The position numbers and the translations under genes are program-made. A DNA stretch of 64,000 nt, taken from contig OZ245842.1 of NCBI GenBank assembly GCA_965228895.1, forward strand, positions 1,792,001 to 1,856,000. The letters run 5' to 3'. The notes beneath the pieces are model-generated. The model did no database searches. It had not been told where the DNA came from and worked only from the letters and a program-made list of their open reading frames with translations. The stretch is from Alphaproteobacteria bacterium (GTDB lineage Bacteria > Pseudomonadota > Alphaproteobacteria > SP197). The first letter of the stretch is position 1; each line of letters opens with the position of its first letter. Below are positions 2,749 to 63,733 of the stretch, one piece after another.

Positions 2749-3657
2749 TCAGAGACCTTTGTCCCAGTACGGCTTGTCGCCGAAGCGCTCGGCAAGGAAG
2801 TCAATGAAGACACGAACCTTGGCTGACAGGAAACGGTGGGGCGGATAGATCACCGATATGTCGGCAGGCCGCCGTTCCCAGTCGCTCAGCAACCGGACCA
2901 GCTTGCCGGATCGCAAGTCCGGGCCGGTAATGAAGGTGGGCAAAAGCACGATGCCGCGTCCGCGCACGGCGGCGTCACGCAGGACATCGCCGTTGTTCAC
3001 ACACAGATGACCGGGGACCGTGACCGTCACCTCGCCGGACGTATTGTGAAAACTCCAACGCACGTCGGTCGCCAGATGGCCATAGGTCAGGCACGTGTGG
3101 TCGACGAGGTCGTCGGGGTGTTGCGGTTCGCCATGCGCGGCCACGTAGTCGGGCGAGGCGACAAGCGACTGATGAGACACGGCAATGCGCCGCGCGATCA
3201 TGCTTGAATCGGCAAGCGCGCCAATCCGCACGCCGATATCGAACCCGCCGTCGATCATGTCGACCTGGCGGTCGTTCAAGATCAACTGCACCTTAACGTC
3301 GGGATAGCGCGCCATGAAGTCGGTCAGCGGACCGGTCAGATGCAGCATCGCAAACGACATCGGTGCGTTGATGCGAAGGCGCCCACGCGGTTCGTCGTGC
3401 AGGCTGGAGACCGCCAGCTCGGCCTCTTCGACATCGGCCAGGATGGCAAGGCAGCGTTCGTTGTAGGCAAGCCCGACCTCGGTCGGACTGACCCGGCGTG
3501 TGGTCCGGTTCAAGAGCCTGGCGCCCAACTGCTTTTCCAACTGCATCACGCTCTTGCTGACGCCGGCGCGGGTCAGACCGAGCTTGTCAGCCGCCGCGGT
3601 GAAACTCTTGCTCTCCACCACCTGGGTAAAGATTTTCATGTTTGTCAGGCGGTCCAC
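2749..3657 (-). CDS. LysR family transcriptional regulator
   Basis: GTG start with RBS GGAG; HTH SFTAAADKLG...LLNRTTRRVSPTE; divergent from pirin. Confidence 0.93.
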   Translation of the reverse strand: MDRLTNMKIFTQVVESKSFTAAADKLGLTRAGVSKSVMQLEKQLGARLLNRTTRRVSPTEVGLAYNERCLAILADVEEAELAVSSLHDEPRGRLRINAPMSFAMLHLTGPLTDFMARYPDVKVQLILNDRQVDMIDGGFDIGVRIGALADSSMIARRIAVSHQSLVASPDYVAAHGEPQHPDDLVDHTCLTYGHLATDVRWSFHNTSGEVTVTVPGHLCVNNGDVLRDAAVRGRGIVLLPTFITGPDLRSGKLVRLLSDWERRPADISVIYPPHRFLSAKVRVFIDFLAERFGDKPYWDKGL

Positions 3658-3790
3658 GGCTTCTCCATTGTCAACTACGGGTTTCCATATTCGTTCATTT
3701 CGATCGGATTGTCTCCTGTTTTGCCAGAGCCATCTGCAAGCCTGTGTGATCCGTAACCCATGTATGCCGCGATGAAGAGGAGATGACGCC

Positions 3791-4495
3791 ATGATGACCA
3801 TGCGACGCGCCGACGATAGGGGACACGCCCGTTTTGACTGGTTGGACAGCCGCCACACGTTCTCGTTCGGCAGCTACCATGACTCCAGGCATATGGGTTT
3901 CGGGCCGCTGCGCGTGATCAACGACGACCGGGTGATTCCGGGCGCCGGCTTCGAGACCCATGGCCACCGCGATATGGAGATTGTGACCTATGTCCTGGAA
4001 GGCGCGCTGGCCCACAAGGATAGCCTCGGCAACGGGTCGGTCATTCTGCCGGGCGAGATCCAGCGCATGAGTGCGGGCGCCGGCATCACCCACAGTGAGT
4101 TCAACGACTCAACGACCGATCCCGTGCATTTTCTCCAGATCTGGATCGAGCCAAGCCAGATTGGTTTGACGCCCGGATATGAGCAAAAGCCCATACCGCC
4201 TGAAGCCAGGCGCGACCGGTTCGGCCTTCTGGCGTCGCCTGACGGTCGTGACGGGTCGGTCACCGTGCATCAGGATGCCATGCTCTGGGGTGCTTTGCTG
4301 TCACCCGGCACGTCGGTCGAGCATGATCTCGCGGCCAACCGTCTTGCCTGGTTGCACGTGGCTGACGGCGTGGCCGAGGTGAACGGGGAGTATTTGGAGA
4401 CCGGCGACGGACTCGCTGTGCGCGACGAAACCAAACTGGCGGTCCAGGCTATCGACAACACCGACATCCTCCTGTTCGACTTGGCCGACCAGTAA
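3791..4495 (+). CDS. Pirin family protein (YhhW-like)
   Basis: WLDSRHTFSF, GFETHGHRDMEI, MSAGAGITHSE, FLQIWI motifs. Confidence 0.93.
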   Translation: MMTMRRADDRGHARFDWLDSRHTFSFGSYHDSRHMGFGPLRVINDDRVIPGAGFETHGHRDMEIVTYVLEGALAHKDSLGNGSVILPGEIQRMSAGAGITHSEFNDSTTDPVHFLQIWIEPSQIGLTPGYEQKPIPPEARRDRFGLLASPDGRDGSVTVHQDAMLWGALLSPGTSVEHDLAANRLAWLHVADGVAEVNGEYLETGDGLAVRDETKLAVQAIDNTDILLFDLADQ

Positions 4496-57745: not shown

Positions 57746-58489
57746 TTATGACATCAAACGCTCGCCGCAAGACGCCAGGATATCGGCAACGCCGTCGCCG
57801 ACACCTTCGCCGCGCCGGTCGCTGCGGATGTAGATGCCTTGGGTCTCGTCGGCGTAATTCTTCATGATCCGCTCGACCTCGGCCTCCGGCCACACGGGTG
57901 TTGGCACGTAGACGGCCGATATGCGGATGTTCATGGATGCGGCCTGACGCGCCAGGCTGTCGGCCAGCGCGTCATCGACACCGGGCGTGTAAAGATCGTC
58001 GACGCCGCCGGGCAGCTGGTCGGTGATCAAGATGACGATGCGCACGTCGCCTTCGAAGGTGCCGTTGAAGTCGCCGATTCGGTACTGGCCGTCGGGCGGC
58101 AGGCGGTTGAGCACGGTGGCCAACGCGTCAGCCGACGCTTCGGGAATCTGTTCGCCGCCCGCCGCGCCCAGGCGTGAGAGGTTGTGGGCGACGGATTCTT
58201 TCTTCGTCGATGGGGTCGGGCTGGCGTTGAGGTCGTCGAGAACCTGAATGTACTCGCGAAACACCACCAGGCCGAGACGGTAGTCACCACCCGAGAGCTG
58301 TTCGATGTCATCGAGTAGACCGATCGCCTGGCGCTGAATGCTGAGCAGGGCACCCCACATGCTGCCGGATACATCCAGGACGAAGACGACATCCATGGAG
58401 CCGCACTGGCGTTCCGGCTGCTGAGCTTGGGTCGCCGTCGTGAAGAGGCTCAGCATAACTGCGGCCGCGATGGAGGAAAGCCAGTTCAT
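57746..58489 (-). CDS. Secreted vWA domain protein
   Basis: Signal peptide; DVVFVLDVSGSM MIDAS, GGEQIPEA, ILITD. Confidence 0.85.
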   Translation of the reverse strand: MNWLSSIAAAVMLSLFTTATQAQQPERQCGSMDVVFVLDVSGSMWGALLSIQRQAIGLLDDIEQLSGGDYRLGLVVFREYIQVLDDLNASPTPSTKKESVAHNLSRLGAAGGEQIPEASADALATVLNRLPPDGQYRIGDFNGTFEGDVRIVILITDQLPGGVDDLYTPGVDDALADSLARQAASMNIRISAVYVPTPVWPEAEVERIMKNYADETQGIYIRSDRRGEGVGDGVADILASCGERLMS

Positions 58490-58560
58490 GGTGCCGACCA
58501 TCTTGCCACAGGTCTGGCACACATCCATGACAACCCTGGCAAGCCATTCAGCGGACCGGT

Positions 58561-59647: not shown

Positions 59648-60340
59648 CTACATCAAGTTCAGTTGGCGAAGGCTGGCATGACCGCTGCGCGCGACGACAA
59701 TATGATCGTGTACGACAATCTCGACCGTCTTCGCGGCAGTGACGATTTCGCCGGTCATGGCAATGTCGGCCCGGCTTGGCGTCGGATCGCCGCTGGGGTG
59801 GTTATGAACCAGGATCAATGCCGTCGCACCCAGTTCGATGGCGCGCTTCACCACTTCGCGCGGATAGACCGGCGTATGGTCGACCGTACCCCGCTGTTGA
59901 ACCTCGTCGGCCACCAGGCGGTTCTTCTTATCCAGGAACAGGATACGAAACTGCTCCTTTGCCTCGAAGGCCATGGCAGCGCGGCAATAGTCGATGACAC
60001 TCTCGAAGCTGCCAAGAATGGGGCGCGCTGCGAGCTCGCCCTTCAGCATTCGTGCGGCGGAGGCTTTGACCGTCATCAGCGCAATGGCTGTGTTCTGCTT
60101 GACGCCTTTGACCTCCATCAGCCGTTCCGGTTCGGCCGCGATGACCTCGGCAAAGCTGCCGAAGCGTTCAATCAGGTTCTTGGCGAGTGGTTTGACGTCG
60201 CTTCTGGGAATGGCGAAGGTCAGAAGCAATTCCAGCAGTTCATAGTCGGGCAGGCCTTCGGCGCCGTCGCGCAGAAAGCGCTGTCTCAACCGTTCGCGAT
60301 GGCCATGGTAGTGCGGCGTTTCCTTGGTGCCATCGGCCAC
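59648..60340 (-). CDS. radC: RadC/JAB domain protein
   Basis: [39 protein letters not shown]. Confidence 0.93.
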
Positions 60341-60351
60341 GAACTTATGGC

Positions 60352-61170
60352 CTAGACGTAAGGGGGCAGCTCGTGACCGGCGGGCGACAAGGTGAACACC
60401 TCGACGCCATCGGATGTCACGCCGATCGTGTGTTCCCACTGCGCCGACAGAGACTTGTCGCGGGTCACTGCGGTCCAACCGTCCTCAAGGATCAGGACAT
60501 CGGGCCGGCCCAGGTTGATCATCGGTTCGATGGTGAAGAACATGCCTTCTTCCAACGCTACGCCGGCGCCCGGTCGGCCATAGTGCAGAACGTTGGGCTG
60601 GTCATGGAAGACCTGACCGATGCCGTGACCGCAGAAGTCGCGGACGACACTGCAGCGCTCGCTTTCGGCAAAGGACTGGATGGCATGGCCGATATCGCCC
60701 AGAGTCGCGCCTGGCTTCACGGTCTTGATGCCGCGCCACATGCACTCAAACGTTATCTCGACCAGACGCTCGGCTTTGCGTTTGACCCCGCCAACCGGGT
60801 ACATGCGGCTGGTGTCGCCATGCCATCCGTCAAGGATGACCGTGACGTCAATGTTGACGACGTCGCCTTCGCGCAGCGTCTTGTCAGCGCTGGGGATGCC
60901 GTGACAGATGACGTGGTTGATCGACGTGCAGATGGATTTCGGGAAACCCCGGTAGTTAAGCGGCGCCGGTATCGCGCCGTGGTCGACGATATAGTCATGA
61001 CACAGCCGGTCCAGATGTTCGGTCGTGACGCCGGGCGCGACATGGCTGGCGATCATGTCGAGCGTCGAGGCGGCCAGGTGGCCGGCCGCACGCATCTTCT
61101 CGAACGCGTCAGGACCGTGAATCCGGATCTGGGATTCCGGGTTTCGTTCCGCCCGCTTTAGCTGTTGCAT
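60352..61170 (-). CDS. map: Type I methionine aminopeptidase
   Basis: CHGIP, NIDVT, HGDTSR, GHGIG, TIEPM, AQWEHT. Confidence 0.96.
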
Positions 61171-61192: not shown

Positions 61193-61891
61193 TCATAAGT
61201 GAAGGGGCACCGCTTTATCTAGGACGATTTCGTCCGGGGTCAATCTACACGAATAGGCAAGGGCCTCAACGCCGCGCGCCATGGCGTCGCGCAGAGCGGC
61301 CGCGTAGGTCGGGTCAATGTCTTCGGCGACGGCGAAGCCCGGGCAGTCCATCCGCTGGATCACATAGAAGACGGCTGCGCGATGGCCGGCCTCGACCATA
61401 TTGGCCAATTCGCCCATGTGTTTGGCGCCGCGCGCCGTGACGGCGTCCGGAAACTCGGCCAGCTTGTCACGTTTCAAATGACAGTTCTTGATTTCGACGT
61501 AGCAGGACGGCCGGCCGGCTTGTTCGAGCAGGATATCGATGCGCGAGTTGACGCCATACTTGACCTCACGCCGTAGCGTTTCATAGCCGGTCAGTTCCGG
61601 CACGGCACCGGCCTCGATGGCCTCGGCGACCAGGCCGTTTGGGTGGGACGTGTTGATGCCGACAAGCCCGCCATCGGCATGGGCCAGTTGCCAATCCCAT
61701 TTGAGCTTGCGTTTGGGATTGTTGGCCGGCGACAGCCAGGTCTCCATGCCCGGTTCCTTCAGGCCGATCATGCCGCCTGGATTGGCGCAATGGGCGGTAA
61801 CCGTCTCGCCCGATTCCAACTCGTGATCGGACAGAAAGCGTTTGTAGCGCTTGATCAGCCGGGCTCGCTCGAGAGGGTAGGGGAACTGCAC
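61193..61891 (-). CDS. sfsA: SfsA nuclease-family protein
   Basis: RYKRFL, HCANPG, SRID, EIK, FPDAVTARG.KH. Confidence 0.94.
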   Translation of the reverse strand: MQFPYPLERARLIKRYKRFLSDHELESGETVTAHCANPGGMIGLKEPGMETWLSPANNPKRKLKWDWQLAHADGGLVGINTSHPNGLVAEAIEAGAVPELTGYETLRREVKYGVNSRIDILLEQAGRPSCYVEIKNCHLKRDKLAEFPDAVTARGAKHMGELANMVEAGHRAAVFYVIQRMDCPGFAVAEDIDPTYAAALRDAMARGVEALAYSCRLTPDEIVLDKAVPLHL

Positions 61892-61906: not shown

Positions 61907-62431
61907 CTATGGCGCTGGTTGAACCGAGGGTTGGAAGATCATGCCGGGCTCATCAGGTGGCGGTTTTTCCGGAAGTGCCGGCTGAGGCTCGGCGTAGAAC
62001 ACGAGGCCGGAGCGTTCCTCGATCGTCGCATCTTCTTTGGACAGCCTCACCATGACGTCAGTCGCCATTTCCTGCGCCGTATCTGCGGCTTCCTTAAGCC
62101 TGACAGCGGTGTCGCGGTCCCAGTCCAGCACATAGGCGCGCGGCTCGATCTCGCCCTCGTGGCGCAGCCAGATATAGATTGCCACACCTTCGCGAATATC
62201 GGCGCCGACCAGCACAGCACCCTGATGAAAATCTCTGAACCACTCCATGGTGATTGGCTTGGGCCGGCCCATCAATCCCATGGCATCGATATACAGAAGC
62301 GGCACGAGAACCGCCAGCGCGCCAAGCGCGGCCAGCTTGCGCCACAGCTTGCCGCGCGCACGGATCGCCGACCAGGCCAGTATGGCCATCAGCACAAAGG
62401 TCGCGGCAAAAAGACCGGTCACGAAATCCAT
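61907..62431 (-). CDS. Hypothetical membrane protein (2 TM plus soluble domain, Pro-rich tail)
   Basis: ATG 2 nt after the upstream stop; two hydrophobic helices, GRPKP, IYIWL...EPRAYVL. Confidence 0.75.
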   Translation of the reverse strand: MDFVTGLFAATFVLMAILAWSAIRARGKLWRKLAALGALAVLVPLLYIDAMGLMGRPKPITMEWFRDFHQGAVLVGADIREGVAIYIWLRHEGEIEPRAYVLDWDRDTAVRLKEAADTAQEMATDVMVRLSKEDATIEERSGLVFYAEPQPALPEKPPPDEPGMIFQPSVQPAP

Positions 62432-62433
62432 GA

Positions 62434-63057
62434 CTACAGCCGTTCGCCTTCGTCCGGTACACGCAGCGGTTTGTAGAGATCGTTGACGGTGAACGGCAGC
62501 AGCCCGCCGGCCTGATTGAGCTCGAACCGGAACACCGTGAGTTCCTGGTCTTCGCGCACCAGCTCGACCTTGGACAGCAGGATCTGTTGCGCCGGTTTGT
62601 CGGGCGAACGTTTGACGCTGACCATCGCCACGACCTCGATTGGCCAATCGGCGGTATGGTTGCGGTACATGTGGACGTTGACGGCGTACTCGCCCTCCGG
62701 AACGCCCCGGCTATAGGCCATTTCGTAGTTCATCGACGTGACGTCGCGAAAATGGCCGAGGTCGTCGCGCAACAGGTCAAAGATGACGCCGCCCCGGTTC
62801 GAGTAGCCCACCGGCACGTCGCCTGGACCCTGGACCCATAGATCGACATCGGCATCGACATGTTCGCGCCAGCGGATCTCGACGATCACGTTGCCGGGCG
62901 CCATCAGGTCGGCCTGCTTTTCCTCCGGCGGATTGACGTGGGGCAGAAGCAGAATGACGAGCGCCACGAACCCGAGCAGGGCGAGCATGATGACGTCGCG
63001 GAAGACCGTGCCGCCGGCATCCTCATCGAGCGGATCAAGCGCTCGCACGAGCCTCAC
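62434..63057 (-). CDS. Single-TM protein with Asp at the TM start and a DUF2135/YfaP-like soluble domain
   Basis: TVFRDVIMLALLGF TM; DADVDLWVQGP, LLRDDLG, NYE, GEYAVNVHMY; start may be GTG 63048. Confidence 0.75.
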   Translation of the reverse strand: MRLVRALDPLDEDAGGTVFRDVIMLALLGFVALVILLLPHVNPPEEKQADLMAPGNVIVEIRWREHVDADVDLWVQGPGDVPVGYSNRGGVIFDLLRDDLGHFRDVTSMNYEMAYSRGVPEGEYAVNVHMYRNHTADWPIEVVAMVSVKRSPDKPAQQILLSKVELVREDQELTVFRFELNQAGGLLPFTVNDLYKPLRVPDEGERL

Positions 63058-63733
63058 CCAATTCGACGACTGCGGCGATCAGGCGAACCGTGCCCGTTGC
63101 CAACAATTGATAGTTGGCCATCAGCCAAATGTTGAACACGGCGCCCACCAAGGTCGTCATGAGGGCCGTCGACATGCCCTGGATCAGCGTCGTCACCATG
63201 GCCGAAATCTTCTCGGTTTCACCGACCGTTTCGGGGTCGACACCGCTCAGCGCAATGATGAAACCAATGACCGTGCCAATCAGCCCCAGAAACACAAGAC
63301 TGTTGCCGATATGGCGTACCAGGGTGATCCGCTGGCTCAGTTTCAGTCGCAAGGACGACCCAAGGATCTGACGGCTCTGCGCGTCCTTGCCCGCGGTCTT
63401 CTCGAGATAGGAGGCGGCAATCGAGCCGGCTACCGGATCGGCTTGGCGGGCCCGGTTGATTTCTCGGCTGGTCTCGAAGACGTGCCAGCAGGCAAGCGCA
63501 AGACCGACCACAAATACACCCGCAATCACCAGGACAAGGTGGGTGCTGTCCGCCTGGACCACCCGTGATACCAGGCCACCGCCCCAAGCCGCGACCAACA
63601 GGGCAAGGGCAATGACGTTGAGCAGGCCAAACCGTAACAAAAGTAGGTAACTATAGGGATCATTGGCGGAATCGAGGCTCTGATCCCCGCTAATCGGGGC
63701 AGAACCCGGCATTTCTTCGGTGGTGGTCGTCAT
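63035..63733 (-). CDS. MotA/TolQ/ExbB proton-channel family protein
   Basis: LGLIGTVIGF and GMSTALMTTLVG signature helices; two N-terminal TM segments. Confidence 0.88.
   Translation of the reverse strand: MTTTTEEMPGSAPISGDQSLDSANDPYSYLLLLRFGLLNVIALALLVAAWGGGLVSRVVQADSTHLVLVIAGVFVVGLALACWHVFETSREINRARQADPVAGSIAASYLEKTAGKDAQSRQILGSSLRLKLSQRITLVRHIGNSLVFLGLIGTVIGFIIALSGVDPETVGETEKISAMVTTLIQGMSTALMTTLVGAVFNIWLMANYQLLATGTVRLIAAVVELGEARASA

Follow-up and report, generated by a model that had tools for sequence, protein, structure and literature searches.

We examined a 64,000-nt stretch of alphaproteobacterial DNA (contig OZ245842.1, positions 1,792,001–1,856,000; hereafter the window), near whose end three adjoining genes lie on the minus strand. 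They are here called A, B and C, or together the trio, and a preliminary description had singled them out as a possible ion motor of unusual composition. Gene A (63035–63733) encodes a 232-aa membrane protein of the MotA/TolQ/ExbB family with four predicted transmembrane (TM) helices, gene B (62434–63057) a 207-aa partner protein with a single TM helix and an eight-strand beta-sandwich, and gene C (61907–62431) a 174-aa protein with two TM helices, a small beta/alpha domain and a proline-rich tail. The tight coupling first noted for these genes is evident from their spacing: A and B overlap by 23 nt, the TGA stop of A (63035–63037) falling within B, whose start is a GTG at 63057, and the ATG of C at 62431 (MDFV...) sits 2 nt past the TAG stop of B. 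The longest open reading frame (ORF) for C covers 61907–62647, its part upstream of this ATG overlapping B in another frame; the true gene C is only the portion from ATG 62431. A scan for promoters and terminators gave nothing of use, with 0 promoter-like sites.

Ratios of nonsynonymous to synonymous substitution rates (dN/dS), taken against two genomes of the same genus, are 0.06–0.08 for A, 0.02 for B and 0.09 for C; the trio is under strong purifying selection, with B the most constrained of the three. Because these ratios are low and homologues of B form 5104 clusters at 90% identity, A, B and C are considered functional genes and not chance ORFs.

Architecture of the three proteins

Protein A belongs to the MotA/TolQ/ExbB family: it matches PF01618 of Pfam over residues 116–219 (E 3.9e-10, 40 bits against a cut-off of 22.9; 43.1 bits in a genome-wide search). 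The core of MotA/ExbB proteins is marked by G-x-x-G-T in the penultimate TM helix and T/A-T in the last, and A keeps these small and hydroxyl residues of PF01618 as G-x-x-G-T and T-T; in an alignment of 33 A-family sequences G150, G153, T154, T193 and T194 are invariant. Hydropathy reveals three clear helices and a less hydrophobic last core helix. The 61-residue loop 86–146 should be cytoplasmic, since it holds 10 K/R, and the predicted topology is accordingly that of a MotA-like four-TM protein with a very small cytoplasmic part. No specific NCBIfam model was reached by A (ZorA_2, 22.1 against 100 bits; exbB2, 20.5 against 135 bits, E 4e-4; tolQ, 18 against 221 bits, E 2e-3). In both PADLOC and NCBIfam it is ZorA models that A matches best (top E 2.1e-6, 24.8 bits), over the shared MotA core only (about residues 130–209). 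Among solved structures, the A-family profile found MotA (8gqy, E 9.7e-4) and a ZorA-like chain (8vvn, E 0.084), and identity of A to the TolQ of its own genome is 29% over 90 residues only. From the Pfam match, the failed specific models, the low TolQ identity and these matches in the PDB, A is therefore a distinct branch of the superfamily.

Protein B begins with a short acidic stretch and a single TM helix, at whose head stands F-R-D21; an NPP linker then leads to an eight-strand beta-sandwich (about residues 53–200). F19-R20-D21 borders the hydrophobic helix 22–40 on its N-terminal side. All the motifs originally quoted are present, namely LGLIGTVIGF and ALMTTLVG in A, and F-R-D, DADVDLWVQGP (given as DADVDLWV.GP), LLRDDLG, NYE and GEYAVNVHMY in B. 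The TM Asp, on whose conservation the preliminary description had staked its reading, is widely kept: D21, usually as F-R-D, is retained in at least 90% of 43 aligned, diverse B homologues, and an Asp stands at the helix edge in 12 of 12 B ORFs from distant cellular loci. Invariant among the 43 are W63, D70, D72, W74, G84, D98, D99, G101, E112, G122 and N127, and the acidic residues of this set may bind Ca2+. With its Asp heading the TM helix, B fits the bitopic layout of ExbD and TolR, for which we would place its N-terminus inside.

B has no match in Pfam or NCBIfam (E ≤ 1), PADLOC or PHROGs. Its homologues form 1415 clusters at 50% identity (E ≤ 1e-3), 199 of them at E ≤ 1e-30; of the 5104 clusters at 90% identity, the named ones are all labelled 'hypothetical protein', and none carries a Pfam domain. 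Two ordinary partner types were considered for B and rejected. An ExbD/TolR protein (PF02472) is contradicted by the lack of any Pfam match at E ≤ 1, by the model, which is an all-beta sandwich and not alpha/beta, and by hhalign, which aligned the B family with 19 TolR/ExbD sequences at 1.65% probability, over 29 TM columns only, with D21 opposite the TolR Asp. A MotB/OmpA-like protein is contradicted by the lack of any OmpA-family Pfam match at E ≤ 1 and by a modelled periplasmic domain that has no helix. The earlier proposal of an Asp-bearing partner whose domain is neither ExbD-like nor OmpA-like thus holds.

The same proposal had likened this domain to YfaP/DUF2135, which is confirmed at the profile-profile level only. 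Alignment of B residues 51–179 with seven YfaP-like C-terminal domains by hhalign gave 87.2% probability (E 3.8e-6, 122 columns), and a protein-atlas search points weakly to YfaP/DUF2135 as well (scores 0.83 and 0.82). The Pfam model of DUF2135 (PF09906) matches 4 of the 43 B-family members (best E 0.0061), does not match the B of the window at E ≤ 1, and matches nothing in its genome at E ≤ 0.01. At this level of comparison, the periplasmic part of B is a distant homologue of the YfaP/DUF2135 domain. The two domains align over their whole length; YfaP is, however, a secreted soluble protein with an extra N-terminal region and no adjoining MotA gene, whereas B is anchored in the membrane by its Asp-headed TM helix.

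An AlphaFold2 (AF2) model of B (mean predicted local distance difference test score, pLDDT, 90.5) has a helix at 14–41 and the eight-strand sandwich. Its best matches among solved structures are TerD proteins (2qz7_B, Z 8.7, 133 residues aligned, root-mean-square deviation (rmsd) 4.2; 2kxt, Z 8.1), followed at Z 5.9 by Ca2+-binding jelly rolls. Foldseek alone is weak with this model (E 2.4e-3), and the BFVD database returned only weak beta-sandwich and TerD-like rows, the best (E 5.3e-5) to a 1411-aa protein with TMt 0.08. A search of PDB sequences with the B profile gave chance-level rows only, and B has no TerD match in Pfam. The likeness to TerD, as seen in the model, is a resemblance of fold and not family membership. 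TerD is a soluble cytoplasmic Ca2+-binding protein, whereas B is membrane-anchored; we place the sandwich of B provisionally in the periplasm, by its homology to YfaP, which bears a signal peptide, and by analogy with ExbD.

Six long metagenomic B relatives, all singletons, were considered as possible natural fusions and rejected as such: the five that were read look like run-togethers of A and B or of B and C with out-of-frame stretches, apparently frameshift-type artefacts of assembly or gene calling.

Protein C likewise agrees with its initial description as a protein with two TM helices and a proline-rich tail, by hydropathy, by its AF2 model and by conservation of the tail. It has two hydrophobic helices and a proline-rich C-terminus (PQPALPEKPPPDEP...). 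The model (pLDDT 86.3) places the helices at 3–24 and 29–55 and a beta-beta-beta-alpha-beta-beta arrangement at 72–147, within a domain spanning 62–151. Loop 21–34, which joins the two helices, has 5 K/R and no D/E, so that the C-terminal domain should lie in the periplasm. Conservation is seen at P44 and Y47 of helix 2, in the stretches L-L-S-R-P-K-P and E-P-R-A-Y, and in the tail, which reads F-Y-A-x-P-Q-P-x-x-P-P-K. No match to C was found in Pfam or among PDB sequences. Its modelled domain has the topology of an oligonucleotide/oligosaccharide-binding (OB) fold, with five strands and a helix between strands 3 and 4. Comparison with OB folds is weak, from Z 6.4 (1x6o, 75 residues aligned, rmsd 3.9) down to about 4, with Foldseek E of at least 0.13; a wide structure search with the whole model was dominated by helical hairpins. 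Prediction of a complex of full-length B and C scored 0.00 (mark 0.32) in a run without controls, and has no bearing on their binding either way.

Linkage of the trio in cells and phages

The trio recurs elsewhere, as the preliminary description requires. The order A-B-C is found in 11 of 11 loci of related genomes. We also surveyed named records with a 12-sequence B alignment, which gave at least 601 pattern matches, among them 487 confirmed relatives; in the best 80 of these 487, A-B-C is present at 79 loci, and the 80th locus ends 226 bases after B. Labels of these 80 records include Rhodospirillaceae, Geminicoccaceae, Kiloniellales, Dongiaceae and Azospirillum, and some metagenome-assembled genomes (MAGs) among them are labelled Gammaproteobacteria, Nitrospiraceae or Phycisphaeraceae. 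At more distant cellular loci (B profile E 1e-11 to 1e-51, GC 0.30–0.63) A adjoins B in 11 of 11 cases. At one distant locus (L208) two B paralogues with longer linkers, 325 and 270 aa in length, come after A (A-B-B'), and C was not detected there.

B is present in 25 of 41 relatives and in 22 of the 24 genomes from the family of the window's organism. Across wider samples it occurs in 44 of 301 genomes of the class (37 of 254 genera) and in 14 of 401 genomes of the phylum. Seven Azospirillum chromids carry the trio, including p1 of A. brasilense Sp7, with two matching places per record. Two copies also occur in some other genomes, on the same contig (L058 and L061) or in the same MAG (L076 with L077, L078 with L090); in one of these cases both copies lie within about 7 kb of a single contig.

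Neighbours of the trio, with ORFs in this high-GC DNA chosen by a filter on GC content at third codon positions (GC3), differ among these lineages. Linkage to sfsA and map is confined to the window's own lineage among the loci compared. Among the matches listed, glmU-glmS lies upstream of the trio at 9 loci; an Amidase_3 gene and a BON gene are upstream in Azospirillum, and a LysM-BON gene is nearby in Geminicoccaceae.

The trio is also borne by phages, a new finding that bears out the initial guess of phage carriage. A tblastn search located B in 17 phage records (15 bear the label Rhizobium, 2 Sinorhizobium), those of Rhizobium phage 16-3 and 16 further phages; IMG/VR adds 63 loci with the trio family. 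Phage 16-3 encodes A (p038, 138 aa), B (p040) and C (p042), with small ORFs between them and a trypsin-like protease, p036, upstream of p038 (3187–4086 of locus L199). Phage A proteins are 138–141 aa long, with four TM helices predicted by eye and almost no cytoplasmic loop; the 141-aa counterpart in RHph_X2_25 reaches 23.2 bits with PF01618, against the cut-off of 22.9. With custom hidden Markov models, 65 viral loci could be classified as ABC (47), AB (9), BC (7) or B alone (2), several of the incomplete ones being cut by contig ends. The three IMG/VR loci closest to the window (L136–L138, 59–65% identity) could be host flanks.

The surroundings of phage copies vary. We scanned 145 ORFs from seven of the 63 IMG/VR loci against PHROGs, and found terminase, portal and major head genes around the trio in L146, DNA polymerase, exonuclease and SbcCD genes in L144, primase and DNA polymerase in L158, and an endolysin in L142. 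Of the 65 viral loci, 6 have a member of an endolysin family no more than a few genes from the trio, and 14 have a gene for a secreted trypsin-like serine protease directly upstream of A (for example L199, and L200 at 3586–4233). YfaP itself belongs to the operon of yfaS, an alpha-2-macroglobulin (protease trap); the upstream protease and the YfaP relation make a link of the trio to proteases conceivable.

A FastTree phylogeny of 163 B domains contains a cell-only clade of 18 sequences (support 0.946), and sets the window's clade (81 cellular loci and L138) among viral sequences with local supports of 0.87–0.93. No direction of transfer is read from this tree, since it is rooted at the midpoint only.

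Interpretation as a probable ion-driven motor

Motors with 5:2 stoichiometry driven by ion flow power flagella, nutrient uptake, envelope integrity, gliding and phage defence. In MotAB, ExbBD and TolQR, five A-type subunits surround two B-type helices, and protonation of the Asp drives relative rotation. We favour the reading that A, B and C form a proton-driven motor of this MotA/ExbB stator type with a new periplasmic output, whose target would probably be in the cell envelope, and hold this to be probable though well short of certain. The three proteins would form one inner-membrane machine, in which A makes the ion-conducting ring and B occupies its centre as MotB, ExbD and TolR do, its TM Asp serving as the proton-accepting site; ion flow would then move A relative to B. 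Since A has next to no cytoplasmic domain, and phage A none at all, the work would have to be done on the periplasmic side. Candidates for delivering the force are the TerD/DUF2135-like sandwich of B, which probably binds Ca2+, and C, which as third subunit may have an adaptor role like that of TonB or TolA. Our best guess at the target is the cell wall or outer-membrane layer, with a role in maintaining or remodelling the envelope, and weak hints in that direction come from the cell-wall-related neighbours in three lineages and from the endolysin and protease genes near phage copies. Phages would then have copies of their own with which to act on the envelope of the host, whether in infection or in lysogeny.

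The evidence that carries this reading is of two kinds. The membership of A in its family, the conserved Asp of B, the linkage and selection of the genes and their presence in phages are direct observations, as are the architecture and modelled fold of B and C; the complex with its stoichiometry, the ion drive, Ca2+ binding, the role of C and the envelope target are what we infer from them. Several observations weigh on the other side. Three phage B proteins (L163, L191 and L197 of IMG/VR) have F-R-G-Y in place of F-R-D, with A still adjoining, and because of these the TM Asp of B is not universal. The likeness of the B helix to TolR/ExbD, judged by the hhalign alignment, lacks statistical significance. 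The N-terminus of B has 3 K/R and 5 D/E, so the positive-inside rule does not fix its orientation, and the cytoplasmic location of TerD proteins speaks against a periplasmic sandwich. C went undetected in 3 of the 11 distant cellular loci and in 11 of the 65 viral loci, some of either group being cut by contig ends. Finally, the case for an envelope role consists of scattered hints, because the wider neighbourhood varies between lineages.

The rest of the genome helps to set the trio apart from known systems. PF01618 matches two genes only, A and tolQ, the latter within ybgC-tolQ-tolR-tolA-tolB-pal, and PF02472 matches tolR only; the PF01618 search thus found no flagellar stator genome-wide. 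Neither TonB_C (PF03544) nor the TonB-dependent receptor domain (PF00593) has any match in this genome (98.7% complete), and control genomes gave matches. These searches suggest that the organism, with its 5.5-Mb genome, has neither TonB-dependent uptake nor a flagellar stator. Since TonB_C and receptor matches are lacking and a complete tol-pal operon lies elsewhere, the trio is neither the Ton nor the Tol system of its host.

Among flagellar motors, MotA-MotB and PomA-PomB resemble the trio in the four-TM form of A, in the TM Asp of the partner and in MotA 8gqy being the best sequence match of A among solved structures. They differ from it in that A has no torque-generating cytoplasmic domain and B neither a plug nor an OmpA-like peptidoglycan-binding domain.

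Alternatively, the trio might be a Zorya-type system for defence against phages or for superinfection exclusion, in which a MotA-like protein and its Asp-TM partner sense perturbation of the envelope by an incoming phage, and which phages would use to exclude competitors. We consider this unlikely. ZorA-ZorB does share with A and B a MotA-like core and an Asp-TM partner outside motility and uptake, and ZorA models are the top PADLOC/NCBIfam matches of A; these matches extend, however, only over the shared MotA core, at 14–22 bits against NCBIfam cut-offs of 100–750, and A, at 232 aa, lacks the long tail of ZorA. A ZorB-type domain is missing from B, neither B nor C matches any PADLOC model, and no effector gene of Zorya types I–IV (ZorC/D, ZorE or ZorF/G), nuclease, helicase or other effector adjoins the trio in the window or upstream. 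Patchy spread through the class (44 of 301 genomes) and phylum (14 of 401), and occurrence in temperate and other phages at varying genome positions, in the manner of a moron, would suit such a system, but presence in 22 of 24 genomes of its own family together with housekeeping synteny is unlike a defence island and makes the trio core in this lineage.

About as doubtful is a phage-derived device for lysis or for breaching the envelope, timing or aiding lysis or the entry of DNA by means of the membrane potential, of which the chromosomal copies would be domesticated phage genes. The window's B clade does fall among viral sequences (supports 0.87–0.93), but the tree, being midpoint-rooted, shows no direction of transfer and has a separate cell-only clade of 18. 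An endolysin near the trio (6 of 65 viral loci) and a protease directly upstream of it (14 of 65) would suit a lysis or entry device, yet most viral loci place the trio among replication or packaging genes, outside any lysis cassette. The chromosomal copies lie in a non-prophage context and show strong purifying selection.

By far the least probable is a divergent paralogue of ExbB-ExbD-TonB or TolQ-TolR-TolA doing ordinary Ton or Tol work, for although the layout of a MotA/ExbB channel, a bitopic partner with an Asp-headed TM and a membrane-anchored proline-rich protein mimics exbB-exbD-tonB, A weakly matches the exbB2 and tolQ models, and the small cytoplasmic domain would give a periplasmic output in both, B misses the ExbD model and has a TerD/DUF2135-like sandwich instead of the ExbD/TolR alpha/beta fold, C, with its two TMs, OB-like domain and short tail, departs from the single TM, long spacer and TonB_C or TolA domain of the Ton and Tol proteins, and the genome has neither TonB_C or receptor matches nor extra Pal/TolB partners beside a complete tol-pal, to whose TolQ A is 29% identical.

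In the proposed stator-type motor, what is known is the MotA/ExbB motor principle, and what is new is the partner module and its unexpected distribution in phages. Pfam, NCBIfam, PADLOC and PHROGs hold no name for the B family, and none was found there for the C family. In the literature outside subscription journals and supplements, our search met no account of the trio and no naming of the B or C families, and a search on DUF2135 returned nothing. The available portions of two surveys, of stator homologues and of periplasmic force transducers (PMC12505986, PMC12204202), hold no account of the trio.

Each newly found partner module has revealed a new route by which energy of the inner membrane reaches the envelope. 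More tentatively than the motor itself, we suggest that the trio could be a further functional class of MotA/ExbB-type motors, in which a Ca2+-binding TerD/DUF2135-like sandwich and a two-TM OB-like adaptor deliver force, common to alphaproteobacterial core genomes and a wide range of phages, the latter using it to drive an envelope step that depends on membrane potential. The B family is large (its 1415 clusters at 50% identity) and nameless, a periplasmic module tied only to the poorly understood YfaP and TerD. Its near-universal presence in the family of the window's organism and its occurrence in cultured rhizobiophages make the function directly testable, in Azospirillum brasilense and in phage 16-3 with Sinorhizobium. 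The phage form offers a very small model stator, and a four-helix A of about 140 residues would be among the smallest stator proteins known to us.

Genes around the trio

Downstream of the trio, also on the minus strand, Pfam identifies sfsA (61193–61891), map of the M24 family (60352–61170) and radC (59648–60478), which may be co-transcribed with it and stand outside the conserved module. The longest radC ORF and the end of map share 127 nt, and in view of this overlap the true radC start is probably further downstream. Past the window end, upstream of the trio, come a spacer of about 230 bases, a cinA-like (MoCF_biosynth) gene in divergent orientation and a PCuAC gene. As the preliminary description had it, no tonB, tolA, pal, flagellar or defence-effector gene (Zorya effectors included) adjoins the trio in the window or in the DNA just upstream, the immediate neighbours being sfsA, map, radC and the cinA-like gene; the possibility it raised of a cognate tonB or tolA just beyond the window is answered by the cinA-like gene found there and by the absence of TonB_C matches from the genome.

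Beyond radC the window continues with DctP-like, von Willebrand A (VWA), EamA and MFS genes. The VWA gene (57746–58528, minus strand) encodes 260 aa with a VWA domain (PF00092, E 6e-7) and, by eye, a hydrophobic N-terminal stretch; it lies 3.4 kb downstream of the trio, with sfsA, map, radC and the DctP-like gene between. Membrane-tethered vWA proteins have been proposed, in the available part of the force-transducer survey, as force transducers driven by motors (PMC12204202).

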